A program made the position numbers and the translations under genes. The notes below the pieces were generated by a model. That model worked only from the letters and a program-made list of their open reading frames with translations, made no database searches and was not told where the DNA came from. This document shows positions 15,135 through 36,094 of a stretch of DNA of 43,576 nucleotides, piece after piece (within the stretch, counting starts at the first letter, position 1; each line of letters opens with the position of its first letter). This DNA is from Desulfobacteria bacterium. GTDB taxonomy: Bacteria; Desulfobacterota; Desulfobacteria; Desulfobacterales; C00003060. Location of the stretch: assembly GCA_041547605.1 (NCBI GenBank), contig JBFEUB010000003.1:1-43576 (forward strand). Reading direction: 5' to 3'.

Positions 15135-16805
<1,671 letters not shown>

Positions 16806-17038
16806 AGCTGAAACTGGAACCAGTACTGGCCATTTGCCTGAAGGCCTGTTTGCTTCATCCTGTCAGAGAAGGGCACATGTGACAGAAAGCGTTACGAAGT
16901 TTGTGCAGTCCTTCCTGCCCGCTCCTTGGTATTCACACAACCCCTGTTTCCTTCTTGCTTTTTCTTCTGTTTCGTTTTAAGCCATTTATTCGGGAAAAGG
17001 TCTTATGATTGCGAAATATCAACCGGGTCGGCAGGTCC

Positions 17039-18562: not shown

Positions 18563-18656
18563 GCTCCAATAGACGTTGCGTTGTAGCCCAGTGTTTAGGG
18601 ATGAAAGATTATAAGACTGACATGCTCTTGGAGGCGTGTTCAAGGAGGAGGAAGAT

Positions 18657-19985
18657 ATGAAATGTGAGACAGTTGAAGACGTCCTCAGGGTGGTTCAAGA
18701 AAAGAATGTTAGTTTCGTCCAGTTCTGGTTCACCGACGTGTTGGGCATCCTGAAAAGCTTCGCGATCACGCCTTCTGAGCTGGAGGAAGGTTTGACCGAA
18801 GGGATGGGTTTTGACGGCTCGTCAATAGAAGGCTTTGCGCGGATTGAAGAGAGCGACATGATTGCCAAGCCGGACCCAACCACTTTTCAATTCTTACCTT
18901 GGAGGGGTCAGGACAAACCAGTTGCCAGGATGTTCTGTGACATTCTGCAACCGGATGGAACTCCTTATGAGGGCGATCCTCGGTATGTCTTCAAACGTGT
19001 TTTGAGCCGGGCGAACAACAAGGGGTTCACGTTTTACCTTGGGCCTGAGTTGGAATACTTCTACTTTGAAAGTAATGAGGCCCCTATAATTCTTGACAAA
19101 GGGGGATATTTCGACACTCGGCCGTTGGACATGGGCAGCGATCTGAGGCGGGAGACGATCTTTGCCCTCCAGGATATTGGGATTCAGGTTGAATACAGCC
19201 ACCATGAAGTTGCTCCCAGCCAGCATGAAATTGATATGCGCTATGACGAAGGATTAAGGATGGCCGACAAGACCATGACCCTCAGGATCGTGGTTAAGGA
19301 AATGGCCAGGCGGAGCGGATTCTATGCCACCTTCATGCCCAAGCCCATCTTTGCTGAAAACGGAAGCGGCATGCATACACACCAGTCGCTCTTTCAGGGA
19401 GAGAAAAACGCTTTTTTCGATGTCAACGACATCTATCATCTATCTGACGTGGGCAAGTGCTATATAGCCGGGATCATGCGTCATGCCCGTGAGATGGGAG
19501 CGATTACCAACCAGTGGGTCAACTCTTACAAACGCCTTGTGCCGGGTTATGAGGCCCCAGTGTATGTTTCCTGGGCTCGGCGGAACCGCTCAGCTATGGT
19601 TCGGGTGCCCATGTACAAGCCGGGCAAAGAACAAGCGACACGCATCGAGTTTCGCTCACCGGATCCGGCGTGCAATCCGTATCTGGCCTTTGCCGTGATG
19701 CTGGCTGCCGGGTTGAAGGGGATTGAGGAGAACTACCCGCTTCCGGACCCAGTGGAGGAAGACATTTATGATATGGATGAAGCGGCACGGGAGAAGGCAG
19801 GCATAGAGTCTTTGCCAGGAAATCTTTTTGAAGCGATTAAGGAAGTTGAAAAGAGTGAGCTGGTTCGTGAGACCCTGGGTGATCACATTTTTAACAAATT
19901 TGTAGAAAACAAGAAGATAGAATGGGATTCGTATCGCACCCACGTGAGCCGTTTTGAGATAGAAAAATATCTTCCGATCATGTAA
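18657..19985 (+). CDS. glnA: Glutamine synthetase type I (short, about 442-aa alpha-like form)
   Basis: FDGSSIEGF, GPELEY, SHHEVAPSQHEI, ATFMPKP..NGSGMH, NSYKRLVPGYEAP, RIEFRSPD. SD AGGAGG precedes ATG 18657. Confidence 0.95.
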   Translation: MKCETVEDVLRVVQEKNVSFVQFWFTDVLGILKSFAITPSELEEGLTEGMGFDGSSIEGFARIEESDMIAKPDPTTFQFLPWRGQDKPVARMFCDILQPDGTPYEGDPRYVFKRVLSRANNKGFTFYLGPELEYFYFESNEAPIILDKGGYFDTRPLDMGSDLRRETIFALQDIGIQVEYSHHEVAPSQHEIDMRYDEGLRMADKTMTLRIVVKEMARRSGFYATFMPKPIFAENGSGMHTHQSLFQGEKNAFFDVNDIYHLSDVGKCYIAGIMRHAREMGAITNQWVNSYKRLVPGYEAPVYVSWARRNRSAMVRVPMYKPGKEQATRIEFRSPDPACNPYLAFAVMLAAGLKGIEENYPLPDPVEEDIYDMDEAAREKAGIESLPGNLFEAIKEVEKSELVRETLGDHIFNKFVENKKIEWDSYRTHVSRFEIEKYLPIM

Positions 19986-20009: not shown

Positions 20010-21647
20010 ATGAAGATTGCACTGGCACAAATCAATCCTACCATCGGAGATTTCAGACAGAACACGGAAAAGATGTTGAGGATGGTGGAAAAGGCAAAGG
20101 GCCTTTCCTGCGACCTCATCGTCTTCTCGGAACTGGTTATCTCCGGATATCCGCCACGAGATCTTCTGGAGAGGCGAGACTTTATGGCTGCGAACCTGGA
20201 TCATCTGCACAGACTCGTTGCGTCGGTGACGGGGATTGGTGTTGTTTGCGGCTTTGTGGACGAAAACCTCGATCAGGAGGGGAAGCCCCTATACAACGCG
20301 GCTGCACTCTTTGATCAAGGGGAGATCCTTCATCAAGCCCATAAGAGGTTACTTCCCGATTATGACGTTTTTGATGAAAGAAGGTACTTCAAACCAGGTA
20401 CGGAGTGCCCGTCTTTTTCCTATAAAGGCCTGAAGATAGGGCTGACCATCTGTGAGGACATTTGGAACGACAAGGATTTTTTTTCTAAGCAGCTATACCC
20501 GATTGACCCGGTGGCGCTTATGGTCAAGGACGGGGCCAACCTTATCATCAATATATCAGCCTCTCCCTACTATGCAGGGAAGAGAGAATTTAGATGGGCT
20601 ATGCTCGGCAATGTTGCCAAGAAATATCGGGTCCCTCTCCTTTATGTCAATCAGGTGGGAGGCAATGACAGTGTGCTTTTCGACGGGATTAGCACTGCCT
20701 TTGATGCAACAGGCCAGATCGGAGCCCATTGCAGTGACTTTGAGGAGGACATGGTTGTTTACGACACGGATACCCAAAAAGGCGATCTCCACACAATCAG
20801 TGAAACCGGGGCAGGGTCCATCCTGAAGGCTCTGATCATGGGTACCAGAGATTATGTGCATAAATGCGGATTTGCCAAGGCAGTAGTCGGATTAAGCGGG
20901 GGAATTGATTCGGCCGTGACCGCGTATATTGCAGTGCAGGCCTTGGGCATGGAAAATGTGATAGGTGTTTTCATGCCCTCGCAGTATACCTCCAAGGACA
21001 ACTTTGAAGATACCCGGCAGCTTACCCAGAATCTGGGCATCGAACTCGTTCATGTGCCGGTCGGCGGGATATTCGAGAAATTCCTGGCAGAGCTGGCTCC
21101 GGTTCTCAAAGATGTGACCACAGAGGTTACCGGCCAGAATATACAAGCCCGCATCCGGGGGACCCTCCTTATGGCCTTTTCCAATAAACTTGGTTCTCTC
21201 CTTCTTTCTACAGGAAACAAATCTGAACTCGGGGTTGGTTATTGCACTCTCTATGGTGATATGAGTGGGGGACTAGCCGTCATTTCGGATGTCCCCAAGA
21301 TGATGGTCTATGAACTGGCTCGACTGATCAACAAGGATAAAGACATCATCCCCGACAGAATCCTTCAAAAACTACCTTCCGCGGAACTCAAGCCGGATCA
21401 GGTGGACCAAGATGATCTGCCGCCTTATGACATTCTGGATGGCATATTGACGGCGTATATTGAAGAGAACAAAGGGCCGGACGAAATCATTGCTATGGGG
21501 TTCAACCCCACGATCGTTAAACAGACTATTTTCTGGATTGATCGGAATGAGTACAAGCGGCACCAGGCCCCCCCGGGCCTCAAGGTGACCACCAAATCCT
21601 TTGGCTATGGAAGAAGGTACCCCATAGCCTGGAAATTTTGGGCATAA
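20010..21647 (+). CDS. nadE: Glutamine-dependent NAD+ synthetase
   Basis: Nitrilase domain triad (FSEL, HKRLLP, TICEDIW) plus GLSGGIDS, NIQARIRG, TGNKSE, YCTLYGD, PSAEL. Confidence 0.95.
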   Translation: MKIALAQINPTIGDFRQNTEKMLRMVEKAKGLSCDLIVFSELVISGYPPRDLLERRDFMAANLDHLHRLVASVTGIGVVCGFVDENLDQEGKPLYNAAALFDQGEILHQAHKRLLPDYDVFDERRYFKPGTECPSFSYKGLKIGLTICEDIWNDKDFFSKQLYPIDPVALMVKDGANLIINISASPYYAGKREFRWAMLGNVAKKYRVPLLYVNQVGGNDSVLFDGISTAFDATGQIGAHCSDFEEDMVVYDTDTQKGDLHTISETGAGSILKALIMGTRDYVHKCGFAKAVVGLSGGIDSAVTAYIAVQALGMENVIGVFMPSQYTSKDNFEDTRQLTQNLGIELVHVPVGGIFEKFLAELAPVLKDVTTEVTGQNIQARIRGTLLMAFSNKLGSLLLSTGNKSELGVGYCTLYGDMSGGLAVISDVPKMMVYELARLINKDKDIIPDRILQKLPSAELKPDQVDQDDLPPYDILDGILTAYIEENKGPDEIIAMGFNPTIVKQTIFWIDRNEYKRHQAPPGLKVTTKSFGYGRRYPIAWKFWA

Positions 21648-21846: not shown

Positions 21847-24800
21847 ATGCCACGACGTGATGACATAAAGAAAGTGATGATTATCAGTTCCGGGCCCATC
21901 ATCATAGGGCAGGCCTGTGAGTTCGACTATTCCGGGACACAGGCGTGCAAGGCCCTCCGTAAACTCGGTTATGAGATTGTTCTGGTCAACTCGAATCCGG
22001 CGACGATCATGACAGATCCCGGCATGGCTGACGCGACGTATATTGAACCCCTCAATTTCCGGGCCATGCAGGAGATCATCGAAAAGGAACGGCCCGATGC
22101 CCTTTTGCCTAATCTGGGCGGGCAGTCCGGTCTCAACCTTTCCTCGGAGCTGTATCGTCGGGGGTTGCTGGACAAATTCGGAGTCCAGATCATCGGTGTT
22201 CAGGCTGATGCCATAGAGCGGGGTGAGGACCGAAGCGCCTTTAAAGACACCATGAAGAGGATCGGCCTGCAATTGCCGAAGAGCGCCCTGGCATACAATG
22301 TGGATGAGGCTGAAAAGATTGCTGCCGAACTTGGCTACCCGGTGGTTATTCGCCCTGCCTATTGTATGGGGGGAACCGGAGGGGGCTTGGTGTACAATGT
22401 GGAAGAATTGCGGGTCGTTGCCAGCCGAGGCATCTCAGCAAGCTTTGTGGGCCAGATACTGGTTGAGGAGTCGGTGTTGGGATGGGAGGAGTTAGAGCTT
22501 GAAGTGGTGCGCGACGCCAAAAACCAGATGATTACGGTCTGTTTTATTGAAAATGTGGATCCCATGGGCGTTCATACGGGCGACTCCTATTGCACAGCGC
22601 CCATGCTCACCATAGATCCTGAACTCCAAAACCGCCTTCAAAAATGGTCCTATGACATTGTGGAGGCCATCCAGGTCATTGGCGGCACAAATATCCAGTT
22701 CGCGCACGATCCAAAGACGGGTCGGGTCGTAGTGATCGAGATCAACCCGAGAACCTCGCGTTCTTCTGCTCTTGCGTCAAAGGCTACAGGTTTTCCCATT
22801 GCCTTTATCTCCGCGATGTTGGCAGGGGGGATGACCTTGGACGAAATCCCCTACTGGCGGGAAGGTACGCTGGAGAAATATACACCGTGGGGGGACTATG
22901 TTGTGGTCAAGTTTGCCCGGTGGGCCCTTGAAAAGTTTGAAGACGCCGAGGACAAGCTCGGCACCCAGATGCGGGCTGTTGGCGAAGTCATGAGCATCGG
23001 GAAGACTTATAAAGAGGCTTTCCAGAAGTCGATTCGATCCCTGGAAAACAGTCGCCATGGGCTTGGCTTTGCCAAAGATTTTTACGAGAGATCCCAGGAC
23101 GAACTCATGGATCTGCTAGCTGAACCCTCAAGCGAGCGGCAGTTTATCATGTACGAGGCTTTGCGAAAGGGTGTCAGCGTTGAAGCGCTTTATGAGAAGA
23201 CCTATATCAAGCCGTGGTTCATCGAGCAAATGAAGGAGCTTGTTGGGTTGGAGGAAGAGATCCTAAAATACAAGGGCAATATTGTGCCAGACGACCTGCT
23301 GGGGCGGGCCAAGAAGGACGGATTTTCAGACCGGTACCTTTCTGAGATCCTTGACATTCCGGAAAAGGATATTAGGGAACGGCGAACCTCTATAAGCGTA
23401 GTCGAGGGTTGGGAGCCTGTGCCGGTGAGCGGGGTGGAAAATGCGGCGTACTATTTTTCTACATATAATGCTCCTGACAAGGTGACCAGTAGCAAAAGGC
23501 GCAAGATCATGGTTCTGGGGGGTGGGCCCAACCGTATCGGCCAGGGGATCGAGTTCGATTACTGTTGTGTTCATGCGGCCTTCGCCATACGTGATGAGGG
23601 GTTCGAGTCGATCATGGTCAACTGTAACCCCGAGACTGTCTCAACCGATTATGACACCTCCGATAAGCTATATTTTGAGCCACTTACTGTAGAGGACGTG
23701 TTGAGCATCTACGGAAAGGAAAAGCCGGAAGGCGTGATTGTTCAGTTTGGAGGGCAGACTCCTTTGAATATAGCCAATGAGCTAGCCGGGACTGGTGTCC
23801 GAATCATCGGGACATCACCGGAGACCATAGATCTGGCTGAGGATCGCGACCGCTTCCGCCAAATGATGCGAAAGCTGGGGATTCCCCAGCCTGAATCCGG
23901 CATGGCGAGCACTCTGGAAGAAGCCCTTGATGTAGCCGAAAGGATTGGCTATCCCCTCATGGTAAGACCGTCGTATGTCCTTGGTGGACGTGCCATGGAG
24001 GTGGTCCATGACGAAGAGATGCTTAAGCACTATGTGGCTGCGGCCGTTGATGTGACGCCAGAGCGGCCTATATTGATCGACAAATTCCTGGAAAATGCGA
24101 TTGAGGCAGAGGCAGACGCCATCGCGGATGGCACAGATGCTTTCGTGCCCGCGGTCATGGAACATATAGAACTTGCCGGCGTGCATTCCGGCGACTCTGC
24201 TTGCGTGATTCCTCCCATCAGCATTCCCGTCAGACACCTCGATACCATTTACGAATATACCAAAAAAATTGCAGTGGAACTCAACGTCATCGGTCTGATG
24301 AATATCCAGTACGCTATAGCCAACGATATGGTTTACATCCTTGAGGCCAACCCTCGCGCATCTCGAACTGTGCCTCTCGTATCAAAGGTGTGCAACATTC
24401 AGATGGCTCGAATTGCTACGCAACTCATGCTCGGCAAAAGGCTCTCCGATCTTAATATTGAGCCTAAATCCATCCCATACTTTGGCGTGAAGGAGGCGGT
24501 CTTTCCATTTCACATGTTTCCAGAGGTCGATCCGCTCCTGGGGCCGGAGATGCGGTCCACGGGAGAAGTTTTGGGACTAGCCGATTCCTTTGGATTGGCC
24601 TTTTACAAGGCCCAGGAGGCCGCACAGCAGTATCTTCCTTCTAACGGGACCGTGCTCATCACAGTATCTCTGAGAGACAGGGAGGCTGTTCTGGACGCGG
24701 CGGGGCAGTTTCACAAACTCGGCTTTCACATCAAGGCCACTGAGGGGACGCAGAGGTTCCTGGCTGACCACGGCATTGAATCCGAGGCCATCCGGAAGTT

Positions 24801-25047
24801 ACACGAAGGTCGGCCCAATATTGTTGACGGGATAATGAACAAAGAAATTCACCTAATCATCAATACGCCCAGCGGCAAACTCAGTAAACACGATGATTCT
24901 TATATCCGCAAAGCAGCGATTAAGTATAAGGTACCCTATATTACCACGCCGGCTGCGGCCGTTGCAGCGGCCAAGGGGATTGCAGCTTACCGGCAGGGTC
25001 ACGGTCAAGTAAAGTCCCTTCAGAGCTACCATGCTGATATCAAGTAG
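21847..25047 (+). CDS. carB: Carbamoyl-phosphate synthase large subunit (copy 2, divergent, no adjacent carA)
   Basis: [58 protein letters not shown]. Confidence 0.95.
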   Translation: MPRRDDIKKVMIISSGPIIIGQACEFDYSGTQACKALRKLGYEIVLVNSNPATIMTDPGMADATYIEPLNFRAMQEIIEKERPDALLPNLGGQSGLNLSSELYRRGLLDKFGVQIIGVQADAIERGEDRSAFKDTMKRIGLQLPKSALAYNVDEAEKIAAELGYPVVIRPAYCMGGTGGGLVYNVEELRVVASRGISASFVGQILVEESVLGWEELELEVVRDAKNQMITVCFIENVDPMGVHTGDSYCTAPMLTIDPELQNRLQKWSYDIVEAIQVIGGTNIQFAHDPKTGRVVVIEINPRTSRSSALASKATGFPIAFISAMLAGGMTLDEIPYWREGTLEKYTPWGDYVVVKFARWALEKFEDAEDKLGTQMRAVGEVMSIGKTYKEAFQKSIRSLENSRHGLGFAKDFYERSQDELMDLLAEPSSERQFIMYEALRKGVSVEALYEKTYIKPWFIEQMKELVGLEEEILKYKGNIVPDDLLGRAKKDGFSDRYLSEILDIPEKDIRERRTSISVVEGWEPVPVSGVENAAYYFSTYNAPDKVTSSKRRKIMVLGGGPNRIGQGIEFDYCCVHAAFAIRDEGFESIMVNCNPETVSTDYDTSDKLYFEPLTVEDVLSIYGKEKPEGVIVQFGGQTPLNIANELAGTGVRIIGTSPETIDLAEDRDRFRQMMRKLGIPQPESGMASTLEEALDVAERIGYPLMVRPSYVLGGRAMEVVHDEEMLKHYVAAAVDVTPERPILIDKFLENAIEAEADAIADGTDAFVPAVMEHIELAGVHSGDSACVIPPISIPVRHLDTIYEYTKKIAVELNVIGLMNIQYAIANDMVYILEANPRASRTVPLVSKVCNIQMARIATQLMLGKRLSDLNIEPKSIPYFGVKEAVFPFHMFPEVDPLLGPEMRSTGEVLGLADSFGLAFYKAQEAAQQYLPSNGTVLITVSLRDREAVLDAAGQFHKLGFHIKATEGTQRFLADHGIESEAIRKLHEGRPNIVDGIMNKEIHLIINTPSGKLSKHDDSYIRKAAIKYKVPYITTPAAAVAAAKGIAAYRQGHGQVKSLQSYHADIK

Positions 25048-25077
25048 AAGGAATCGTAGTCAAAGGGGAATAGGCGT

Positions 25078-26457
25078 ATGAAGTCATTGCAAGACAACTG
25101 CGGTGTGTTCGGTTTGTATTCAGAAACCGAATGTGTGCAGGATATATTTCAGGGAATCGATTTTCTTCAGCACCGGGGGCAGGAGTACTGTGGGATTGCC
25201 ACCTTTGATAAGGGTATTCGCATAGTAACGCATTACGGAAAAGCAGCCAATACGTTCAGGGACCAAGAATTGGATTACTTAAAGGGGACTTGGGGCATAG
25301 GCCATGTGAGTCTGCGGGAACGGCAGCCAGTGAGGTGGCGGTCCCGATTGGGTGAGATTGCCGTGGCATTTGGCGGCAACATTGTCAATGCTCATGAGCT
25401 GATCGAAGAAATGAAGAATCGGGGTAGGGCCTTCTATGATGGTTACAATGTCGAAATAATTTCTAAGATTATTATGGAGGAAAGGGATGTTGTAGCGGGC
25501 ATCCGCGCCCTCTCTAAGATCATTAGAGGGGCCTATTCCCTCGTGGTTTTGACGAGGGACGGCATTTATGCTGCCAGAGATATCTTCGCATTTCGACCGC
25601 TCGTTTTGGGTCAGGGTCTCGGCAAGTATGTTATTGCATCCGAGTCTCGCGCTATTCAGAATTTGGAGATGGAATTCATTCGAGATGTTCGGCCGGGGGA
25701 AATCCTGCTGGTGAACGATAAGGGGTTTCAAACTCTTGCACAGCTTGATTCGCCCCGTAGGGCCCATTGCGCATTTGAATGGGCCTACACGGCAAGCCTC
25801 GATTCAATTATTAATGGAGTCTATGTTCAGGAAGCTCGGAACCGATTGGGTGGGAGCTTGGCACAACGGGATATAGATGAAGGAGACCTCGAGGTAGACA
25901 TTGTAGCGGCCGTGCCAATGTCTGGGATCGGGCATGCACTCGGATACCACAAGCGATCCAAGATTAGCTACCAGGAGGTGTTCCTTTACAACCGGTATGC
26001 AGACCGGAGCTATACGCAGTCAAACCAAGCTGCCCGGGAAAAGATGGCGAAACGAAAGCTCTCTGTATTGCAGCATGCTGTGAGAGGCCAGCGTGTTGTC
26101 CTTTGCGATGACTCGATCGTCCGAGGCACCCAGATCCTATACAAGGTGCGGGATCTCAAAGAGGCTGGTGCTCAAGAGGTGCATGTGCGAATTGCCTGTC
26201 CTCCCCTCATGTATCCCTGTGATTTCGGCATATCCACCCGCACTTATGAAGAGTTGGCAGCCAGGCGGCATTTCAAAACAGGCAATATCACTTCTATGAA
26301 AAAGCTGAGGAAGTTGGAAGCATTGATTTCCGAAAAGATCGGTGCAGACTCTGTCAAATACAACAGCCTCGATGCCTTTGTTTCAGCTTTAGGCATCCCG
26401 AAACAAGAACTCTGCCTGAAGTGCTTTGATGGTCTTGACCCCACAGAAACCCAATAA
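25078..26457 (+). CDS. PurF-like phosphoribosyltransferase with degenerate glutamine-binding site
   Basis: CGVFG, LQHRGQE, PRPP motif LCDDSIVRGT and Fe-S cysteines are kept. GHVRYST is replaced by GHVSLRE, HNGN by FGGN and DSE by NVE. Confidence 0.85.
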   Translation: MKSLQDNCGVFGLYSETECVQDIFQGIDFLQHRGQEYCGIATFDKGIRIVTHYGKAANTFRDQELDYLKGTWGIGHVSLRERQPVRWRSRLGEIAVAFGGNIVNAHELIEEMKNRGRAFYDGYNVEIISKIIMEERDVVAGIRALSKIIRGAYSLVVLTRDGIYAARDIFAFRPLVLGQGLGKYVIASESRAIQNLEMEFIRDVRPGEILLVNDKGFQTLAQLDSPRRAHCAFEWAYTASLDSIINGVYVQEARNRLGGSLAQRDIDEGDLEVDIVAAVPMSGIGHALGYHKRSKISYQEVFLYNRYADRSYTQSNQAAREKMAKRKLSVLQHAVRGQRVVLCDDSIVRGTQILYKVRDLKEAGAQEVHVRIACPPLMYPCDFGISTRTYEELAARRHFKTGNITSMKKLRKLEALISEKIGADSVKYNSLDAFVSALGIPKQELCLKCFDGLDPTETQ

Positions 26458-26661
26458 ATCTGGCCAGACATTCATGTCACATCACCCTCCTGGATAAAGG
26501 CTCTCGCCCGTCACTTGGCTCTATGTGTGGCATCTAAAAACAGATAAGGCCTTGCGCCAAAGCGATTGATACGCCATGGACAGACGACCGATCGAACCGC
26601 TGCCCCAGCGGGCTTCATCGACTTACTGATACATTGCCTATCAGGCCCAGTCGCTTAACCC

Positions 26662-26690
26662 TTGACAGTGCGGTCGGACACCAATATATT
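26662..26690 (+). promoter_or_regulatory. Putative sigma70 promoter of the GAF-ANTAR gene
   Basis: TTGACA-17 nt-TATATT, followed 7 nt later by ATG 26698. Confidence 0.65.
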
Positions 26691-26697
26691 TAATATT

Positions 26698-27393
26698 ATG
26701 CCAGATATCGAGGCTTCTGAAAGACATATCGAAGCCCTCACCCGAATCAGCAAGGCGATTACCTCAGAGCGTTACATAGAGGACGTTCTGCGACTTGTGG
26801 TTACGGTGACGGCTAAGACCATGCGTTCCAAGATTTGCTCTCTTTGGCTCTTGGATGAAAACGAAAATGCCTTACAGCTTCGGGCAACCCAGAGCATTAG
26901 CGAAGACTATCTGAAGGAACGGTCTCTGAAAATTGGGGAGGGCATTGCAGGGCAGGTGGCCCTGACCCAAGAGGCCAGGTCCGTGTTGAATGTTTTAGAT
27001 GAACCCGATTACAAGGAGAAGGAACTAGCCAGGAATGAGGGACTGGTTTCAATGCTGAGCGTTCCGATGGTGGTCAAAGACAGGGTCGTTGGCGTGATCA
27101 ACTGCTACACATCCGAACCTCATGAGTTTACAGAAACCGAGAAGAATGTGTTGACCACCGTGGCCAATGCAGCAGCCGTGGCCATTGAAAATACAGAGCT
27201 GATGGTAAAAACCAGAGTGATTCAAGAGGAGTTGGAGGCAAGAAAGCTTATCGAGAGGGCAAAAGATTTGTTGATGACGCGTCGGGGGTTGTCGGGGGCG
27301 GACGCATATCGGTGGATTCAACGACGAAGTATGGATGTGCGCAAGTCCATGAAGGAAATTTCAGAGGCAATAATATTGACCGACGATATGTAA
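26698..27393 (+). CDS. GAF-ANTAR RNA-binding antitermination regulator
   Basis: GAF (IGEGIAGQVA, SMLSVPM, VVGVINCY) plus ANTAR (LEARKLIERAKDLLM...AYRWIQRRSMD..KSMKEISEAII). Confidence 0.92.
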   Translation: MPDIEASERHIEALTRISKAITSERYIEDVLRLVVTVTAKTMRSKICSLWLLDENENALQLRATQSISEDYLKERSLKIGEGIAGQVALTQEARSVLNVLDEPDYKEKELARNEGLVSMLSVPMVVKDRVVGVINCYTSEPHEFTETEKNVLTTVANAAAVAIENTELMVKTRVIQEELEARKLIERAKDLLMTRRGLSGADAYRWIQRRSMDVRKSMKEISEAIILTDDM

Positions 27394-27444
27394 GCAACAC
27401 TTAAAATCTCGTGGGGTATCACAGGGCCCGAAGCACAAAAGCTG

Positions 27445-27473
27445 TTGACAGGTGTGAGCTTTATTAATAAAAT
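27445..27473 (+). promoter_or_regulatory. Sigma70 promoter for the glutamate-synthase-like/redox operon
   Basis: TTGACA (27445-27450), 17-nt spacer, TAAAAT (27468-27473). Confidence 0.8.
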
Positions 27474-27485
27474 ATGAGTGGTTTC

Positions 27486-27527
27486 AGGGTTACAATGGTG
27501 TGACTCTCAAACGACGACACTGAGGTC
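27486..27527 (+). promoter_or_regulatory. ANTAR-target RNA (dual hexaloop hairpins)
   Basis: P1 AGGGTTAC-AATGGT-GTGACTCT and P2 GAC-ACTGAG-GTC. Both loops are 6 nt with A1 and G4 and are closed by C-G. P2 overlaps the 5' arm of the terminator. Confidence 0.8.
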
Positions 27528-27561
27528 CAACTGACCCACATGGGTAGTTGGGCTTTTTTTT
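27525..27561 (+). terminator. Intrinsic leader terminator (attenuator)
   Basis: GTCCAACT(g)ACCC-acat-GGGTAGTTGGGC stem followed by T8, located between the promoter and ATG 27593. Confidence 0.85.
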
Positions 27562-27592
27562 GTCAAAAACAGGAATTAAGGAGGAATAGGCC

Positions 27593-29158
27593 ATGTCATT
27601 TAGTAAACCAAATCGCAGTGCAGCCACCTTAACGACTACTAGGGTAGCACCTGCGCCGATCTCCGGCATCTGTGTCACATGTTTGGATGGTTGTGAGGGG
27701 CCGTGTGAGATCGGGCGATCCGCCCTCAGGGGGAGAGAGGTCATCTATCCCATCCCATTTGGAAAGATTACAGCTGGCTCTGAAAAGGATTATCCTGTTG
27801 ACTTTTCCCATTTGAATATCCAGGGGACTGCCGTCGGGTCCGTGGGCGTTGAGGCCGATCCTGACAAAGCGACCTTTCCGGTTGTGGATACCACCACGGC
27901 ACTCGGTGCTGATGGAAGCATCAAACTTGATTTTCCGGTGTTCACGGGCGCCGTGGGATCAACCGACATTGCCCGGATCAACTGGACAGATGTGGCTGTC
28001 GGTGCTGCCATATCCGGGGTCATCGTAGTAGCCGGAGAAAATATCTGCGGCATGGACCCCCAGGCTGAGTTTAGTAATGGAAAAATTTTGCGGTCCCCCG
28101 AGATGGAGCGCAGGGTCCATGCGTTCAGGGAATGGTATAATGGCACGGGAGGGATCATCGTCCAGGCCAATGTTGAAGATACCAAGTTAGGCGTGCCGGA
28201 ATATGTGATTGAAAAGCTGGGCATAGAAATCTTTGAACTGAAGTGGGGACAGGGTGCAAAAGACATTGGAGGCGAGGTGAAGCTCCCGTCCATAGAGCGG
28301 GCCCTTCAGCTGAAGGAACGGGGCTACATTGTGCTTCCGGACCCTACCAATCCTGCTGCCCAGAAGGCTTTCAAGGCAGGGGGCATTACCGAGTTTGAGC
28401 GCCATTCCCGTCTCGGGATGGTTGATGAGGATGCCTTCCATAAGGAAGTGGAGCGCCTCCGCAGCGTTGGGGCAAAGTACGTTACTTTGAAGACCGGGGC
28501 ATATCGGCCTGCTGACCTGGCCCGCGCCATTAAGTATTCTTCTGATTCAAAGATTGATCTGTTGACCATAGATGGGGCTGGCGGAGGCACTGGGATGAGC
28601 CCCTGGCGGATGATGAACGAATGGGGCATTCCTACGGTGCAACTAGAGTCTCTGGCCTATCAGATGTGTGAGAAAATGAGGGCCAAAGGGGCCTATATTC
28701 CACCCATTGCCATTGCAGGGGGGCTCTCCCTGGAAGACCATATATTTAAGGCCATCGCGCTAGGCGCTCCTCACGTGAAAGCCATTTGTCTAGGAAGGGC
28801 CATGTTGACCGCCGCCATGGTGGGCAAGACCCATGGTAAATTGATGGCACAGAAGATGGAAGATGAAGGGGAAGACCCGAGCGATGGATACCTCAAGCTT
28901 TTTGCTGTGGCAGCCCAACTCAAAGAACGGTTCGGCGATGATTTTGCCAAGCTCCCGGCGGGAGCCATTGGTATGTATTCCTACATTGACAGACTGAAAC
29001 AAGGTTTGCAACAGCTCATGGCAGGAGCCCGAAAGTTTGCGCTTCAGTACATCGACCGTGATGACCTTGTTGCCCTTACCCGGGATGCAGCAGAGGTCTC
29101 TGGTATTGCCTACGTCATGGAGAGTGATGCTGAGGAGGTTGAAAAGATTTTGGGCTAG
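27593..29158 (+). CDS. Stand-alone FMN-binding glutamate synthase family protein (GltB FMN domain only)
   Basis: ELKWGQGAKDIGGE, VTLKTG, TIDGAGGGTGMSP, EWGIPT, IAGG, FKAIALGA. N-terminal CxxCxxxCxxxC. No Ntn amidotransferase or GXGXG domain. Confidence 0.85.
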   Translation: MSFSKPNRSAATLTTTRVAPAPISGICVTCLDGCEGPCEIGRSALRGREVIYPIPFGKITAGSEKDYPVDFSHLNIQGTAVGSVGVEADPDKATFPVVDTTTALGADGSIKLDFPVFTGAVGSTDIARINWTDVAVGAAISGVIVVAGENICGMDPQAEFSNGKILRSPEMERRVHAFREWYNGTGGIIVQANVEDTKLGVPEYVIEKLGIEIFELKWGQGAKDIGGEVKLPSIERALQLKERGYIVLPDPTNPAAQKAFKAGGITEFERHSRLGMVDEDAFHKEVERLRSVGAKYVTLKTGAYRPADLARAIKYSSDSKIDLLTIDGAGGGTGMSPWRMMNEWGIPTVQLESLAYQMCEKMRAKGAYIPPIAIAGGLSLEDHIFKAIALGAPHVKAICLGRAMLTAAMVGKTHGKLMAQKMEDEGEDPSDGYLKLFAVAAQLKERFGDDFAKLPAGAIGMYSYIDRLKQGLQQLMAGARKFALQYIDRDDLVALTRDAAEVSGIAYVMESDAEEVEKILG

Positions 29159-29249: not shown

Positions 29250-29459
29250 ATGTTGAACATTATCTGTAAACACAACTGCAAGTCATGTTATGCTGAGCCT
29301 GTTTGCGCTGTGGATGCAATCATAGACCAGCAAGGTTCCATATATGTGGAGACCGAAAAATGTATTGGCTGCGGGTGTTGTCGCACGGCATGCGTGACCT
29401 TTGGGTATGATCAGGCTTTGAAAGACAAGACTGTAGAGTGGCTGAAGGGTGCTGCGTAG
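29250..29459 (+). CDS. Small 4Fe-4S ferredoxin-like protein
   Basis: SD AAGGAGGT. CKHNCKSC...CAVDAI and CIGCGCCRTAC motifs. Confidence 0.8.
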   Translation: MLNIICKHNCKSCYAEPVCAVDAIIDQQGSIYVETEKCIGCGCCRTACVTFGYDQALKDKTVEWLKGAA

Positions 29460-29649: not shown

Positions 29650-31464
29650 ATGTACGGATATACCGGTCGTTGCCTTCGGGTCAACCTGTCCGATGAGAAG
29701 CACTCGGTTGAAGTAATTTCACCCGAGTTGCTGACCCGATTTGTAGGCGGACGGGGTCTTGGGGTCAAGATGTACTCAGATGAGGTCGGCCCTAAAACGG
29801 ACCCCTTGGGGCCAGAGAACAAATTGGTTTTTGTCTCGGGTCCCCTTGTCGGCACGGGTGCCGTCACTGGGGCCTCTTGCAATGTGATCACAAAGAGCGC
29901 CCTGTCCGGAACCATTGGTTGTGCAAAGATGCGGGGGCACTTTGGGGCAGAACTGAAGTTCGCCGGATTCGACATGATCATCGTTGAAGGGAGGGCGGCA
30001 TCACCGGTCGTCCTGTCTATCCTGGACGATAAGGTGAGTATCCAGCCGGGGCTTCAATATTGGGGCCGCACTACGTCAGAATCAGAGGAAATCTTTAAGA
30101 AAAATCTCACCGACGATTGGGCGGCCCGGGAGACATACCTGGTCTCTATCGGCCCAGCAGGCGAGAAATTAGTCCCTTTGGCGAACATCATTAATGACGG
30201 ATTCTTATCCGTTGGGGGTGCGGGCATTGGCGCTGTCATGGGATCCAAGAATCTCAAGGCCATCGCCGTCAGGGGGAGCCGTTCGTTGTCAGTTGCAGAC
30301 AGCGATCGGTTTGTACGGGTCGTTACGAACCTGATCAATAAATTGAACAGCGCCCCACTCACTTCTCATTCCATGTCCGCGTGGGGATCCGCCTTTTTTG
30401 TGGATCTCTGTTATCAGAAGGGGATACTGCCTCAGAAGAATTTTCTGGGTGCCCCTTTTACGGAATTAAGAGAAATTGGGACCGAGGCCCTGTCGAATGC
30501 CTTTGCTTTTAGGAGCAGCGGGTGTTTTGCTTGCCCTATTGCCTGTCTCAAGAAGACGGATGTGAATAATCCCCTCTTTAAAGGCAGGGGCATGGCGCCA
30601 ACTTACTGGGCTATTGGCGCTCTTGGGCTTAACTGTGGGATTAAAGACCTGAGCATCATTGGTATGGCGAATATTATCTGCGCCGAGATGGGACTCGATC
30701 CAATTGCCGCGGCTGGCACCGTGGCTACGGGTATGGAGTTGATGGAAAAGGGGATCGCTTCCCAGGACAACTTAAAGCTTGCACTGCGGTTTGGGCAGGG
30801 AGAGGACCTTCTTCAGGCCCTGACGCTCATGGCCACAAAAAAAGGTTACGCCGAGAGAATTGGAAAAGGGGCGCGGGCCTTGGCCGAGGAATACGGTCAA
30901 CCCGAGTGTTTTATGGGCGTTAAGGGGATGCCTATGGCTCCCTTTGATCCGAGAGCTATTCAGGGCATGGGTTTGCATTTTGCTACCTGTAATTACGGGC
31001 CCCATCATCTGTACGCCTACACCTTCATCGAAGAGGTGTTGAATGTCCACGAGGAACTGGATCCCTGGAGCACCGAGGGCAAACCTGAACTGGTTAAGCG
31101 ATACCAGGATATGGCGGCGATCATGGATTCGCTGGGGCTTTGCAACTGGCCGCTGCTGGGGCTCAAGTTCAATAATCTCGTTCCCATGATCAATAGTGGT
31201 CTGGGCACTGACCACCGTGCAGATGATCTCTTGGGGATCGGAGAACGAATCTGGAACCAGGAAAGACTGTTTAACATGGGAGCCGGATTTCACAATTCGC
31301 ACGACACATTGCCCAACAGATTTTTCAAAGAACCGATTTCAGATGGGCCGGCTCAGGGGCAGATTAGCAAGGTGGACGAGATGCTTCCCAAGTACTATGA
31401 GATTCGAGGCTGGAGCGAGAAAGGTGCGCCCAAGGCCGACAGATTGGAGGCCTTGGAGCTGTGA
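29650..31464 (+). CDS. Aldehyde:ferredoxin oxidoreductase (AOR)-family protein with degenerate tungstopterin/catalytic motifs
   Basis: End-to-end AOR architecture (GGRGLG, GAELKFAG, SIGPAGE, GAVMGSKNLKA, CFACPIAC, DPR, DSLGLC, ERLFN, YYEIRGW). Several cofactor residues are substituted. Confidence 0.9.
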   Translation: MYGYTGRCLRVNLSDEKHSVEVISPELLTRFVGGRGLGVKMYSDEVGPKTDPLGPENKLVFVSGPLVGTGAVTGASCNVITKSALSGTIGCAKMRGHFGAELKFAGFDMIIVEGRAASPVVLSILDDKVSIQPGLQYWGRTTSESEEIFKKNLTDDWAARETYLVSIGPAGEKLVPLANIINDGFLSVGGAGIGAVMGSKNLKAIAVRGSRSLSVADSDRFVRVVTNLINKLNSAPLTSHSMSAWGSAFFVDLCYQKGILPQKNFLGAPFTELREIGTEALSNAFAFRSSGCFACPIACLKKTDVNNPLFKGRGMAPTYWAIGALGLNCGIKDLSIIGMANIICAEMGLDPIAAAGTVATGMELMEKGIASQDNLKLALRFGQGEDLLQALTLMATKKGYAERIGKGARALAEEYGQPECFMGVKGMPMAPFDPRAIQGMGLHFATCNYGPHHLYAYTFIEEVLNVHEELDPWSTEGKPELVKRYQDMAAIMDSLGLCNWPLLGLKFNNLVPMINSGLGTDHRADDLLGIGERIWNQERLFNMGAGFHNSHDTLPNRFFKEPISDGPAQGQISKVDEMLPKYYEIRGWSEKGAPKADRLEALEL

Positions 31465-31476
31465 TCTTTAAGAAGG

Positions 31477-31540
31477 GGTTGAGTGGTTAAGTCGTTTTCA
31501 GCCCAACCACTTAACTAGTCGACTAATCAACTAATCGACT
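31477..31540. repeat. Inverted octamer tandem-repeat array (GGTTGAGT / ACTYAACY type)
   Basis: ggttgagt-ggttaagt ... gcccaacc-acttaact-agtcgact-aatcaact-aatcgact. Confidence 0.65.
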
Positions 31541-31561
31541 TCGAAACTGCGAGAGAGGCAT

Positions 31562-31936
31562 ATGCCGAAAATAGTAATTGATCACAACAAATGCACCGGC
31601 TGTAGGCATTGTGAGGTCGCTTGTTCTCTGAATCATGTAACGGGTATTGCCAATCCTCGAAGAGCCCGAATCAGGGTTTTTCGGGAGGGGAACACCTTCT
31701 TTCCCGTGATTGCCGGTCCCTTTGTGGACGCGGCTTGCACATCGAAGCTTACCATAAAGGCGGGTGATCAGACATACGATATGTGTGTGCTCTGCCGGGC
31801 TACGTGCCCACAGAAATCCTTTTTTTTAGAGGCTGAGACCGGCTTTCCCCTTAAGTGCGATTTCTGCGGTATTCCCCCTAACCCTTCCTGCGTTCGCTGG
31901 TGCAATTCCGGAGCCCTGGAGTTGGTGGAGGATTAG
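31562..31936 (+). CDS. BamC-like 3x[4Fe-4S] electron-transfer subunit
   Basis: KCTGCRHCEVACS..NPRRARIRV..PVIAG..C..YDMCVLCRATCP..F.E.ETGFPLKCDFC..PSCVRWC. The pattern matches the remembered BamC sequence but lacks its C-terminal tail. Confidence 0.75.
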   Translation: MPKIVIDHNKCTGCRHCEVACSLNHVTGIANPRRARIRVFREGNTFFPVIAGPFVDAACTSKLTIKAGDQTYDMCVLCRATCPQKSFFLEAETGFPLKCDFCGIPPNPSCVRWCNSGALELVED

Positions 31937-31938
31937 CT

Positions 31939-32005
31939 ATTTGGAAATTGGAAAATTTGGGAATTAGTCCCTCAATCCCTCAATTCCATAATCCCTCAAT
32001 TCTCA
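31939..32005. repeat. Inverted octamer tandem-repeat array (ATTKGGRA / AATCCCTC type)
   Basis: atttggaa-attggaaa-atttggga ... agtccctc-aatccctc-aattccat-aatccctc-aattctca. Confidence 0.65.
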
Positions 32006-32009
32006 TGAT

Positions 32010-35000
32010 ATGAAGCATAACAAGGATAGTCACAACATCATCGGTGCCCTCATGGTATTAGGCGGTGGCATTGCCGGCATCCAGGCGTCTATGGATCTGG
32101 CTGATGCTGGTTTCCGAGTGTATTTGGTCGAGGCATCTGCGGCCATAGGTGGCGTGATGGCAGCTCTCGACAAGACCTTTCCTACCAATGACTGTTCGAT
32201 CTGAATCTTAGCCCCCAGACTCGTTGAGTCTGCCAGGCATCCCAACATCGAAATTCTAACCAATGCGACTTTGAGGGAAGTTTCGGGGTCTGCCGGAAAC
32301 TTTAAGGTGACAGTGCTGAAACAACCCCGCTACGTGGATGAAACAAAATGCACGGCCTGCGGGATTTGCGCCACCTATTGCCCCGTTCTGGTTCCTGATC
32401 CCTATGACGAAAACATGGCTCATCGCAGAGCGATCTACATCCCTTACACACAGGCGGCTCCATCGGCCTATGTGGTCGACCCATACCATTGCCTTTTTCT
32501 GAATAGGCAAGAATGCAAGCAGTGTACCCGAACTTGTGAGGCCAAAGCCATCAATCTTGACCAGAAGCCCGAGATAATAACCTATGAAGTGGGGGGGCTG
32601 ATCCTGGCTCCCGGCTTCTCAAGGTTTGATCCTGGGCGGTTGCCTGCCTATGGGTATGCGGATTGTCTCAATGTAGTTACTGGTTTAGAGTTTGAGCGGA
32701 TCTGCTGTGCGTCTGGGCCGTCCATGGGAAAGATCCAGAGGCCCTCGGACCGAAATAAACCCGAGAAGATAGCGATTGTCTTATGTGTAGGCAGCCGGGA
32801 CAAGGCTTGCGGCAATCCTTACTGTTCCTCGGTTTGTTGTAAGTATGCGATCAAGGATGCAATCGTGGCGTTAGAACATGAGCCTGATTTAGACATCACG
32901 ATATTTTTCATGGACATTCGCACGTACGGCAAGGATTTTGAGAAGTTTTATCAGCGTGCGAAAGCAGCGGGTGTGAAGTTTGTGCGTAGCAGGGTCTCTG
33001 AGATTAGAGAGGACCCCCGAACCAATGATCTCACCTTAAAGTACGTGACAGAAGATGGGGGCCTGAGGAAAGACACCTTTAACTTGGTGGTGCTGGCCCA
33101 CGGGCTTGAGGCTCCTGCGGGCAGCAGTAACCTCGCCTTGGCAGCAGAGATCGGACTGAACCAGTACAATTTTTGCGAGACGGGCCTGTTTCGACCACTT
33201 GATAGCACCAGAGAAGGCATCTTTGTCGCCGGTGCGTTTCAAGGACCCAAATCGATTCCCGACAGCGTGATCCAGGCTGGTGGTGCTGCCGCCTCGGCAG
33301 CCGAGCTGTTGGCTGCGGTCCGTGGAACGCTGGTCAGAGAGAAGACGTACCCTGAGGAGCGCACAGACGCTGACGCACCATCGAAAATTGGGGTGTTTGT
33401 ATGCCACTGCGGCAAGAATATTGCCGGGGTGGTGGATGTAGAAGCAGTGATCAAATACGCAGAGAGCTTGCCTGATGTGGCGATGGTGGAACGTAACCTC
33501 TACTCTTGTTCTTCGGATACCCAGGCTTTGATTGCAAAAACCATAGCTGAGAAGGGTTTGAATCGTGTGGTGGTGGCCGCCTGCACGCCCAGAACGCATG
33601 AGGTGCTTTTTCAAGACACCCTGAGAGAAGCGGGCCTCAACAAATGTCTTGTTGAGATGGTTAATATTCGGGATCAATGCTCATGGGTGCATATGCATGA
33701 GCGGGAGGCAGCCACGGAAAAGGCCAAGGAACTTGTCCGGATGGCTGTTGCCAAGGCGAGACAGATTCAGCCGCTTCCAGAGACAACTATTGAGGTCATT
33801 CCGAAGTGTCTTGTCATCGGTGGCGGACTCTCGGGTATGACCGCGGCCCTCAGCTTAGCCCGGCAGGGCTTTGAATGTTACTTGGTGGAACGTAGCAGTG
33901 ATCTTGGAGGCAATCTCCGGCACACCTATTTTACGTTGGAGGGGCCGGATCCCCAAGAACACCTTAAGCGACTTATTGAGCAAGTGGAATCAAACGATAA
34001 GATTCATCTCTTCACGAAGACCGCCATTCAAGAGGTTGCAGGCTTTGTTGGCAACTTCAAGACCGTCCTGTCTTTCGGGAGCGGAACAGGAGTAAAGACA
34101 GAAGAAATCGAACACGGAGCCATCATTGTGGCCACAGGGGCCACGGCCTATGAACCCGACGCGTATCTGTATGGCCGGCATAAAAACGTGGTGCTTCAGC
34201 AAGTATTGGAAGAAGGGCTAGCCCTTGGGAAGGTCGATCCGAAAGACCTTAAACAGGTCGTCATGATCCAGTGTGTGAGCTCAAGGGACGAGACCCATAC
34301 CTATTGCAGTGCGATTTGTTGCAACCAGGCGATCAAGAATGCCTTGAAGATTAAAGAACTTAACCCTGAAGCCAATGTAAGCATCTTGTATCGCGATGTG
34401 ATGAGTTACGGCTTTAGTGAGGATTACTACAGTCTTGCCAGGGATCAAGGCATTGTTTTTATCCGCTACAGCCCGGATAAAAAGCCCAAGGCAGAGAATG
34501 TTGAGGGCAAGGTGCGCGTGACAGTTAAGGACCCGATAGTGAAGCAGAATGTGATCATTCATGCTGATCTCTTGGCTTTAAGCACGGCCATGGTTCCATA
34601 TGACAACAGGGACTTCGTTGAAAAGCTGAAGGTACCGCTATCCTCCGATCAGTTTTTCTTAGAATCTCATGCACAATTGAAACCCGTGGATTCTTATGTG
34701 GATGGTATCTATCTTTGCGGCAAAGCGCAGTTTCCCAAGCCCATCAATGAGTGCATCGCCCAGGCCAAGGCTGCTGCAGCCAAAGCTGCCATTTTGTTGG
34801 CCAAGGGCTATGTGATGGCAGAACCGATCATTGCCTCGTGCGACATGGACACCTGCATGGGATGCGGTATCTGTGCCTATTTGTGTCCATATAGTGCCAT
34901 CCAAATGACGAAGGTGGGCAAGCTGAAAAAAGCCGCAATTGTTGCAGCAGCCTGCAAGGGATGCGGTGTGTGTGCCTCTTATTGTCCAACCAGGTCCATT

Positions 35001-35066: not shown

Positions 35067-35067
35067 G

Positions 35068-35179: not shown

Positions 35180-35211
35180 AAGGGAAGATTACGAGTAGAA
35201 GGAAAGGGATC

Positions 35212-35961: not shown

Positions 35962-35966
35962 CAATT

Positions 35967-36061: not shown

Positions 36062-36094
36062 GCATGACAAAGGACAGGAAGCGGAGTAAGCAGA

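Follow-up and report, generated by a model that had tools for sequence, protein, structure and literature searches.

A conserved accessory carB-purF pair and an ANTAR-linked FMN enzyme in Thermodesulfobacteriota: candidates for amination outside the usual glutamine route

Introduction

To our knowledge, glutamine is regarded as the nitrogen donor that all bacteria use, both for carbamoyl phosphate and in the first step of purine synthesis. That CarB and PurF can work with free ammonia is known from side activities in vitro or from mutants. Here we describe a block of four genes, carB2, purF2, a GAF-ANTAR regulator and a flavin mononucleotide (FMN)-only GltS-like enzyme, in a Desulfobacteria bacterium (assembly GCA_041547605.1; 3.46 Mb, 315 contigs, 95% complete). 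The window, by which we mean the whole 43,576-nucleotide stretch analysed, is contig C3 of that assembly, and its genes were identified by Pfam and NCBIfam profile matches to its open reading frames (ORFs). Our tentative reading, to which we give a probability of roughly 40%, is that the block makes carbamoyl phosphate, phosphoribosylamine and glutamate outside the usual glutamine-to-tunnel route, most simply from free ammonia, and does so beside a housekeeping set. The data show the gene content, the orphan status of CarB2, the conservation and co-occurrence of the genes, the residue patterns and the ANTAR leader; what we infer is which donor supplies the nitrogen, which signal is sensed, in which direction regulation works and whether energy is saved.

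CarB2 shares its four-domain layout with E. coli CarAB, along with the residues of the ATP sites and of the gate (C232, A251 and A314); it differs in being a natural, conserved orphan without its own carA and in the replacement of 12 residues (positions 214-265) that E. coli CarB has in common with canonical CarB1. Human carbamoyl phosphate synthetase 1 (CPS1), according to PMC4655335, takes ammonia from solution and keeps a dead amidotransferase module. An orphan CarB2 together with a PurF relative that has lost its nucleophilic cysteine (PurF3, described below) would be an analogous solution, with the difference that the CarA-derived domains of CPS1 are fused, whereas CarB2 has no CarA-like domain.

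PurF2 resembles B. subtilis PurF (1AO0) in its full-length match, in a propeptide before Cys1, in its phosphoribosyl pyrophosphate (PRPP) loop and in four iron-sulfur (Fe-S) cysteines. It departs from that enzyme in lacking the R-Y-x-T loop, in its residue at the Asp127 position and in having about 25 extra residues, features that are common to PurF3. The FMN protein is like the FMN domain of GltB and of split glutamate synthase (GOGAT) in its triosephosphate isomerase (TIM) barrel, its motifs and its nitrogen-gene neighbourhood; its four-Cys motif, however, is unlike the 2x[4Fe-4S] domain of the split-GOGAT subunit, and no genes for the partner domains adjoin it. The leader of its gene, in turn, is like those of ANTAR antitermination systems (EutV, NasR and AmiR) as presented in PMC3369931, with two hexaloop hairpins, the second overlapping a terminator, and a nitrogen gene downstream. 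Here the sensor is a GAF domain, a class that the same paper calls uncharacterised, and the target is an FMN-only GltS-like gene.

Papers dealing with orphan CarB paralogues, with PurF paralogues that lack the Cys or with the FMN-only GltS-like family were not found in our literature search. Should the proposed reading be true, the block would represent a natural glutamine-independent synthesis of nucleotide and arginine precursors in energy-limited anaerobes. The GltS-like gene with its conserved leader would also be the first concrete target for a GAF-ANTAR regulator, with the proviso that the supplementary tables of PMC3369931 may already list this leader class. If CarA proves to be shared after all and glutamine to be the donor, the block would be no more than a set of ordinary isozymes.

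A second CPS large subunit, orphaned across its clade

The genes of interest all lie on the + strand of the window. A first-pass annotation made from the sequence had placed four genes at 21847-29158, and profile matching recovers them there:

21847-25047, + strand: carB2, full-length CPS large-subunit paralogue (1066 aa), no adjacent carA
25078-26457, + strand: purF2, PurF-like PRPP amidotransferase paralogue (459 aa)
26662-27393, + strand: GAF-ANTAR regulator (GAF_2 76.5 bits; ANTAR, PF03861, 62.7 bits)
27593-29158, + strand: FMN-only GltS-like enzyme (521 aa), partial match to Glu_synthase PF01645

The glutamine-dependent set that the same annotation located some 16 kb upstream is likewise present:

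2481-3668, + strand: carA, sole copy in the genome
5685-8996, + strand: carB1
9000-10397, + strand: purF1, canonical

CarB2 matches NF003671 at 1496 bits (cut-off 599) and TIGR01369 at 1346 bits (cut-off 1027), with residues 1-1062 covered. Its Pfam domains, CPSase_L_D1 and D2 (two stretches each), D3 and MGS, correspond to a pair of ATP-grasp halves together with oligomerisation and MGS-like allosteric domains. Its identity to CarB1 is 52%, and an alignment shows the ATP-site residues and catalytic motifs of both halves to be retained without exception. An assembly-wide profile search returned one carA over cut-off and two full-length carB genes, both in the window; the genome likewise has one purF over the TIGR01134 cut-off, with the PurF2 paralogue below it. 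The upstream carA-carB1-purF1 genes are thus the housekeeping set, and carB2-purF2 is an extra pair.

To place CarB2 among its relatives we used a phylum sample of 151 genomes (Thermodesulfobacteriota), in which labels such as G000 and G009 denote genomes and L011 and L012 denote loci. Identities to CarB2 are bimodal across this sample: they reach 72-85% in 54 genomes and the present one, and the remaining copies, at 51-56%, are CarB1-like. A CarB2-type gene is therefore present in 55 of the 151 genomes. Exactly one carA match occurs in 53 of these 55 (none was found in G009, and in G069 one gene is split over two contigs), and carA adjoins the CarB1-type gene wherever coordinates permit reading. 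The earlier observation that CarB2 has no partner carA thus extends well beyond the window, and the orphan state is a property of the entire clade.

The single-carB genomes G009 and G062 have their canonical cluster severed at contig ends. Two genomes, G009 (CarB2 only, no carA) and G033 (no canonical purF), were considered as proof that the paralogues suffice and were rejected, the carA-carB-purF cluster being cut by a contig end in both.

Clade-specific changes of CarB2 gather around the ammonia tunnel

We compared 72 CarB2 with 19 CarB1 sequences (18 parsed of 20 fetched regions, plus the window copy) and scored as type II, or clade-specific, those sites that are at least 90% conserved within each clade and carry a different residue between them. 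Of the 55 sites found, the N-terminal carboxyphosphate half accounts for 37 and the homologous C-terminal half for 12 (binomial p 0.0008), even though the two halves are equally conserved overall, with 42% vs 41% of positions identical in both clades. Residues 214-349 of CarB2 alone hold 24 of the 55, where 7 are expected, and the allosteric domain holds none.

CarB2 numbering equals that of E. coli CarB up to residue 277, so positions can be compared directly. E. coli CarB carries the CarB1 residue at 214, 226, 227, 230, 233, 249, 250, 254, 256, 260, 261 and 265. By eye on an alignment, human CPS1 does so at eight of these 12 (214, 226, 227, 250, 254, 256, 260 and 265); it has Thr230 as in CarB2, and residues other than those of either clade at 233, 249 and 261. 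Convergence of CarB2 on CPS1 residues was accordingly rejected, CPS1 being of E. coli type at 8/12 sites with Thr230 alone in common with CarB2.

The type II positions flank C232 and A251, two residues of the gate; both of these and the third, A314, are retained. R265 and Y261 of CarB presumably form tunnel wall at the CarA interface; R265 was not found in a literature search of tunnel papers. The gate of the CPS ammonia tunnel is described in PMC8674909 and PMC4655335, and the latter reports that E. coli CPS variants with a blocked or perforated tunnel remain active with ammonia. The pattern fits a large subunit whose ammonia-receiving side has been altered, with catalysis and allostery left as they were. 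Such a change is what one would expect if CarA were no longer the partner of CarB2, or not its only one.

PurF2 has a remodelled glutamine pocket and a sister clade without the nucleophile

PurF2 scores 316 bits against TIGR01134 (315 bits in the genome search), under the cut-off of 350. It is 33% identical to the purF1 product and aligns over its full length with B. subtilis PurF (1AO0; E 3e-78). Retained are a seven-residue propeptide followed by Cys8 (Cys1 of the mature enzyme, in C-G-V-F-G), the H-R-G-Q motif, the G-N of the oxyanion motif, the PRPP loop D-D-S-I-V-R-G-T and the four Fe-S cysteines. The R-Y-S-T-x-G loop is gone through an eight-residue deletion, H-N-G-N has become F-G-G-N, D-S-E has become N-V-E, and about 25 residues are inserted near the C-terminus. 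Arg73 and Asp127 of PurF are presumably glutamine-binding; in PurF2 the loop is deleted and the Asp position is Asn.

These pocket changes are conserved across 81 family members, which points to a glutamine site that is remodelled rather than decayed, and Cys8 is invariant in 35/35 aligned sequences. The first-pass description of a degenerate glutamine site therefore survives in part: the loop deletion, F-G-G-N and N-V-E bear it out, but Cys8, H-R-G-Q and G-N are kept and the changes themselves are conserved.

Orthologues of PurF2 were found at 80 loci (64-95% identity) in metagenome-assembled genomes of Desulfobacterales, Syntrophales and Desulfobaccales. Nine loci were too short upstream and were excluded from the adjacency count; among the 71 with at least 600 nt upstream, carB2 lies directly 5' of purF2 in 65 (64 by script, L082 by eye) and is absent in 6. 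Within the phylum sample PurF2 occurs in 8 genomes, always with CarB2, and a canonical purF over cut-off occurs in 143.

Examination of 40 further loci revealed a second PurF-like clade among the neighbours of carB2, which we term PurF3. It is 33-35% identical to PurF2 and has the loop deletion and the C-terminal insertion in common with it. We examined the N-terminus in 23 sequences, one of which, in the wrong frame, was dropped. All 22 readable sequences begin M-G/S-G-x-F (M-G-G in 13, M-S-G in 9) where PurF has M...C-G; in these 22 the nucleophilic Cys is lost and the oxyanion Asn is absent, and the PRPP loop is retained. PurF3 occurs in 25 of the 151 genomes, never together with PurF2, and CarB2 accompanies it in 22 of the 25. 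Its gene adjoins carB2 in G036, G072, G099 and G130, on the 5' side in two of them and on the 3' side in the other two; 18 of the 25 genomes carry it on another contig than carB2 or about 60 kb off, and a search of a further 3 found no CarB2-type gene. In G030 a Cys-less PurF relative of even greater divergence lies 3' of carB2.

Taking both clades together, CarB2 is present in 30 of 33 genomes with a PurF-like paralogue vs 25 of 118 without one, for a naive odds ratio of 37 in which related genomes are not independent. The three PurF-paralogue genomes without CarB2 are fragmented or have only partial carB matches. This co-occurrence, considered with the Cys-less PurF3, suggests that the job of the PurF-like family goes with CarB2 and that glutamine hydrolysis would be unneeded in most lineages; the window copy may retain it.

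A PurF-like protein in the place of CarA?

One way to account for so close an association is that CarB2 and the PurF-like protein form a physical complex, in which a PurF-derived protein, composed of an N-terminal nucleophile (Ntn) and a phosphoribosyltransferase (PRTase) domain, occupies the seat of CarA. PurF2, its Cys kept, would then feed ammonia to CarB2, or PurF3 would be a dead subunit with a structural or regulatory role, comparable to the inactive glutaminase domain in CPS I, and the first steps of pyrimidine/arginine and purine synthesis would be coupled. Such a complex would constitute a new CPS class, fed by a class II amidotransferase in PurF2 lineages and, in PurF3 lineages, CPS-I-like and ammonia-dependent with a dead amidotransferase. 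The adjacency of carB2 with PurF-like genes, tight and variable in order, speaks for it along with the co-occurrence, as do the changes in CarB2 where a partner subunit should dock, a location that we partly presume.

We know of no solved CarB-PurF complex, no search for one having been made. A prediction was run with CarB2 residues 1-540 and PurF2, each with a custom alignment of 35 rows. The pair scored 0.52 (runs of 0.00, 0.57 and 0.52), the best of three controls scored 0.00, and the verdict returned was 'weak support'. In calibration the pass mark was met by 58/80 solved complexes and 2/110 mismatched pairs; at scores of 0.60 or less, however, only 7 of the 80 solved complexes reached the mark, as did both mismatches. 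The pass is thus weak by its own calibration. One run gave 0.00, the runs agree in at least 0% of contacts with a partner pLDDT (predicted local distance difference test) of at least 82, and no interface was returned. Three further considerations count against a complex: CarB2 does not depend on a PurF-like paralogue, since 25 of its 55 genomes lack one; PurF2, with its complete PRPP site and Fe-S ligands, should have a job of its own; and in most PurF3 genomes the gene, as noted above, is remote from carB2 or without a CarB2-type gene. We consider the complex quite unlikely.

The FMN-only protein is a family of its own within the GltS FMN superfamily

The FMN protein matches PF01645 at 52.5 bits (cut-off 20.4), over profile positions 186-309 of 369 only, and has no NCBIfam match. 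Hundreds of database entries under the name 'FMN-binding glutamate synthase family protein' match it at 84-93% identity, full-length relatives extend to about 32%, and the family is present in 85 of the 151 phylum genomes. An N-terminal motif, C-x2-C-x3-C-x3-C, precedes the FMN domain, and there is no other domain beside it. Its AlphaFold (AF2) model (pLDDT 84) is an FMN-type TIM barrel. In structure searches with Foldseek and VIA-align, alpha-hydroxy-acid oxidases, type 2 isopentenyl diphosphate isomerase (IDI) and GltS tie at Z 26-27, so the fold does not name the substrate. Sequence and profile searches against the PDB returned only designed TIM barrels, which are spurious, and matched no solved GltS. 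An hhalign comparison with the genome's own GOGAT FMN subunit gave 92.9% probability over 256 columns, and the motifs Q-G-A-K...G-G and D-G...G-G-T-G are common to both; this alignment and these motifs place the protein, by homology, in the GltS FMN superfamily.

The protein belongs to a separate, highly conserved family and is not a GOGAT fragment. The first-pass label of a glutamate synthase with the FMN domain only was right in that no amidotransferase, central or GXGXG domain is found in the protein, and wrong in treating it as a piece of that enzyme.

As to a separately encoded partner, which the same annotation had named as a point that would tell against it, none of the 30 loci surveyed has an amidotransferase gene within that distance, 1.5 kb, of the GltS-like gene. 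A complete split GOGAT is encoded on contig C124 of the same assembly (L095 2-7989), where the genome's GXGXG and other Glu_synthase genes sit:

C124 GOGAT subunit 1: 376-aa protein with a Met-Cys start as in Ntn amidotransferases, no Pfam match
C124 GOGAT subunit 2: Fer4 and Glu_synthase, 197 bits
C124 GOGAT subunit 3: GXGXG/GltD-like fusion (GXGXG/Fer4_20/Pyr_redox)

A second glnA and a serine hydroxymethyltransferase (SHMT) gene lie near this GOGAT, and the genome thus has two nitrogen modules centred on glutamine synthetase.

The partial match and the tied fold also bear on a broader alternative, that the block carries out new chemistry in an unrecognised pathway, with another amide donor for PurF2, a nucleophile other than ammonia for CarB2 or another 2-oxo acid for the FMN enzyme. 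The FMN protein covers only a third of the Glu_synthase profile, and the pocket changes in PurF2 are conserved and not random, as such a pathway would have it. CarB2, however, lies far above its equivalog cut-offs with the catalytic motifs of both halves complete, and the FMN protein has the motifs of the GOGAT FMN subunit and is found with glnA, glutamate dehydrogenase (GDH) and nitrogen regulators in many genomes. We regard new chemistry as very unlikely.

The survey of 30 loci, within 1.5 kb of the GltS-like gene, gave these neighbours:

GAF-ANTAR gene: 10/30 loci (9 upstream, 1 downstream)
divergent helix-turn-helix (HTH)-cupin regulator: 8/30 loci
glnA: 4/30 loci
aldehyde:ferredoxin oxidoreductase (AOR): 4/30 loci
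NifA-like activator: 2/30 loci

HTH-cupin relatives stand divergently upstream of the GltS-like gene in L098, L100, L112-L115, L117 and L121, mostly without an adjacent ANTAR gene, and this protein may be an alternative regulator of the GltS-like enzyme. In the window the HTH-cupin regulator is 11 kb from the GltS-like gene (40589-41890, - strand).

AOR also lies 3' of the GltS-like gene in L025, L098, L100 and L107. In the window two features follow the gene:

29250-29459, + strand: 69-aa Cys-rich ferredoxin-like ORF with a Shine-Dalgarno sequence upstream; weak Fer4_2 match, 22.9 bits, below cut-off
29650-39936: AOR, then more iron-sulfur and flavin genes

The second stretch holds AOR, small Fer4 proteins, a 931-aa Fer4/FAD protein, NuoE-like and NuoF-like proteins and a Fer2/Fer4 protein. 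The 69-aa protein is a possible electron donor for the FMN enzyme, and the AOR and iron-sulfur genes a possible source of reduced ferredoxin for it.

NADP-GDH is the classic ammonium-replete enzyme. In several genomes GDH genes lie within a few kb of the GltS-like gene, and in G099, G107 and G047, for example, NADP-GDH stands beside carB2, PurF-like or GltS-like genes. GDH was detected in 94 of the 151 genomes; in the present one (G000) the sole trace is a 44-bit fragment where a contig ends. We rejected replacement of GDH by the GltS-like enzyme, as both are often in one genome and adjacent.

A GAF-ANTAR regulator and its target leader

The GAF domain of the regulator is most like the GAF domains of PtsP and NifA (NCBIfam), which sense glutamine and 2-oxoglutarate. 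Its ORF starts with TTG at 26662 and has an in-frame alternative ATG at 26698. The best promoter-like site of the region (TTGACA, 17 nt, TATATT; 26662-26690) overlaps the TTG start; translation from the ATG would mean a leaderless or nearly leaderless mRNA.

Between the regulator and the GltS-like gene lies a leader with the following elements, the ANTAR target having been located by a script scan:

27445-27473, + strand: sigma-70-like promoter of the GltS-like gene (TTGACA, 17 nt, TAAAAT; 11/12 consensus matches)
27486-27527, + strand: ANTAR target, two hairpins 8 nt apart with hexaloops AATGGT and ACTGAG (A at 1, G at 4)
27522-27561, + strand: intrinsic terminator, with the 3' arm of the second ANTAR hairpin forming part of its 5' arm, followed by eight T

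We took the definition of the target motif from Ramesh et al. 2012 (PMC3369931), who also report such sites before glutamate synthase genes in Desulfotomaculum. The leader (27474-27565) folds at -41.3 kcal/mol (z = -5.46), a stability reached by 0/200 shuffles. The strict dual-hairpin motif with a T-run recurs in 12 of 38 orthologous GltS-like leaders, against 0/38 reverse complements and 0/190 shuffles, and several other leaders show, by eye, looser versions of the motif or sigma-54-type promoters. Tandem double hairpin/terminator units stand in the leaders of the orthologues L113, L114 and L116.

The site at 27486-27527 is the only convincing ANTAR site in the window. Four other dual-hairpin matches there, with stems of 3-4 bp inside ORFs, are at chance level and were set aside, and the motif was found upstream of carB2 in 0 of 68 leaders. 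From these leaders, the GAF-ANTAR regulator probably controls the FMN enzyme and nothing else in the block. With a target at the GltS-like gene only, the three genes are not one ANTAR-switched unit, and the idea that they are switched together, as first proposed, had to be given up.

Two units in a shared neighbourhood

The block is best described as two units that recur together in Thermodesulfobacteriota and not as one operon. The first is carB2-purF2, an accessory copy of the carB-purF pair whose canonical form stands behind carA in the same genomes. It comprises a catalytically intact CPS large subunit, in which the surface and tunnel stretch receiving CarA ammonia appears rebuilt in a clade-specific manner, and a PRPP amidotransferase relative with an intact PRPP site and a rebuilt glutamine pocket, replaced elsewhere by its sister PurF3 without the glutaminase nucleophile. 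The second is the GAF-ANTAR regulator with its putative target, an FMN/Fe-S enzyme of the GltS FMN-domain superfamily that lacks the other GOGAT domains; the regulator would free the GltS-like gene from the leader terminator once the GAF domain senses a nitrogen or carbon signal.

Both units are found together in the window and in L012, L018, L023-L025, L084 and L089, and a GltS-like gene lies near carB2-purF2 without a detected ANTAR gene in L053 and L086. In all, 9 of the 80 purF2 loci, many of them short, link carB2-purF2 with a GltS-like gene. Gene orders and orientations vary among these loci, with glnA or nadE nearby in some, and by genome the GltS-like gene occurs in 41 of 55 with CarB2 vs 44 of 96 others. 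The link is real but loose: a shared nitrogen-gene neighbourhood and not an operon. The suggested co-occurrence of the enzyme families with GAF-ANTAR genes holds to this extent, that the pair of GAF-ANTAR and GltS-like genes recurs beside carB2-purF2 in varied orders.

In L011, the closest relative (95-97% identity), the order is nadE-carB2-purF2, with a GAF gene and carA about 8 kb further and no ANTAR/GltS-like pair between. Rearrangement of the neighbourhood thus separates even genomes this closely related.

Two studies yielded RNA-library contigs that agree without differences with parts of carB2, of purF2, of the regulator and of 27390-27990 (from the leader through the terminator into the GltS-like ORF); these contigs, in which DNA carry-over is possible, speak to presence only, not to strand, ends or regulation, and stretches that they leave uncovered carry no meaning.

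Free ammonia or ordinary isozymes

Free ammonia, which the first-pass annotation had put forward, is the simplest donor for all three enzymes, and four comparative observations give this real support: the clade-wide orphan state of CarB2, the apparent remodelling of its tunnel side, the Cys-less PurF3 and the GDH neighbour. Much of the same material can be read in another way, in which the three enzymes are ordinary isozymes. CarB2 would share CarA with CarB1, PurF2 would use glutamine through Cys1, and the FMN protein would work with a separately encoded amidotransferase, for example the Ntn-type subunit on C124; the block would add capacity, or another kinetic or regulatory set-point, to nitrogen-regulated biosynthesis beside glnA.

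Several findings favour isozymes and weigh against the use of free ammonia. None of the 151 sampled genomes clearly has CarB2 without CarA-CarB1, so CarB2 may simply borrow CarA, and its ATP-site and gate residues are, as described, all in place. PurF2 keeps not only the invariant Cys8 and the oxyanion G-N but its whole Ntn domain under purifying selection (64-95% identity), which a purely ammonia-using enzyme would not need. The block directly follows glnA and a nadE with a glutaminase domain of its own. Since carB precedes purF in the canonical pair too, the second pair could have arisen by simple duplication of a tandem pair. Weighing against the proposal from another side, the sigma-54 promoter pattern gave 28 matches in the window vs 23.5 expected, none in a useful leader; with no ANTAR motif before carB2 and no standout sigma-54 promoter, nitrogen control of carB2-purF2 is not supported. 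The GltS-like family, moreover, co-occurs with GDH and often adjoins it, and is no simple GDH substitute.

Against isozymes stand the location of the CarB2 changes, which surround the tunnel gate and spare the allosteric domain, where a regulatory isozyme should differ; the loss of the nucleophile in 22/22 sequences of PurF3, the replacement of PurF2 in other genomes; and the survey of 30 loci, which found no amidotransferase gene within 1.5 kb of the GltS-like gene. We hold isozymes to be, on balance, somewhat unlikely, and prefer synthesis outside the glutamine-to-tunnel route at the tentative level stated at the outset. The first-pass view of a glutaminase-less set applies to the orphan CarB2, to the GltS-like protein without an amidotransferase and to the Cys-less PurF3, but not to the PurF2 of the window, which keeps Cys1.

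The upstream amidotransferase array and other genes of the window

The remaining genes identified upstream of the block are:

1005-1643, + strand: hisH
1624-2412, + strand: hisF
3665-5194, + strand: guaA
10522-11265, + strand: cytidylyltransferase
11327-15085, + strand: 1252-aa GATase/SIS protein
15159-16805, + strand: pyrG
17009-18562, + strand: GAF/sigma-54 activator
18636-19985, + strand: glnA
20010-21647, + strand: nadE with CN_hydrolase glutaminase domain, directly 5' of carB2

Together with carA, carB1 and purF1 these form a same-strand array (1005-21647) that runs through hisH/hisF, carA, guaA, carB, purF, the GlmS-like giant and pyrG and includes nadE, glnA and the NifA-like GAF/sigma-54 activator. 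It comprises nearly all the glutamine amidotransferases of central biosynthesis, among them the genome's only carA and only canonical purF, and portions of it are found again in the relatives L018, L084 and L089. An Rfam scan of the window at gathering thresholds returned no matches. In the 1252-aa protein a central GATase_6/7 and SIS core is flanked by long N- and C-terminal parts without assignment; a 1127-aa relative of the protein adjoins carB2 in L143, and the core of this relative scores 219 bits against GlmS, below cut-off.

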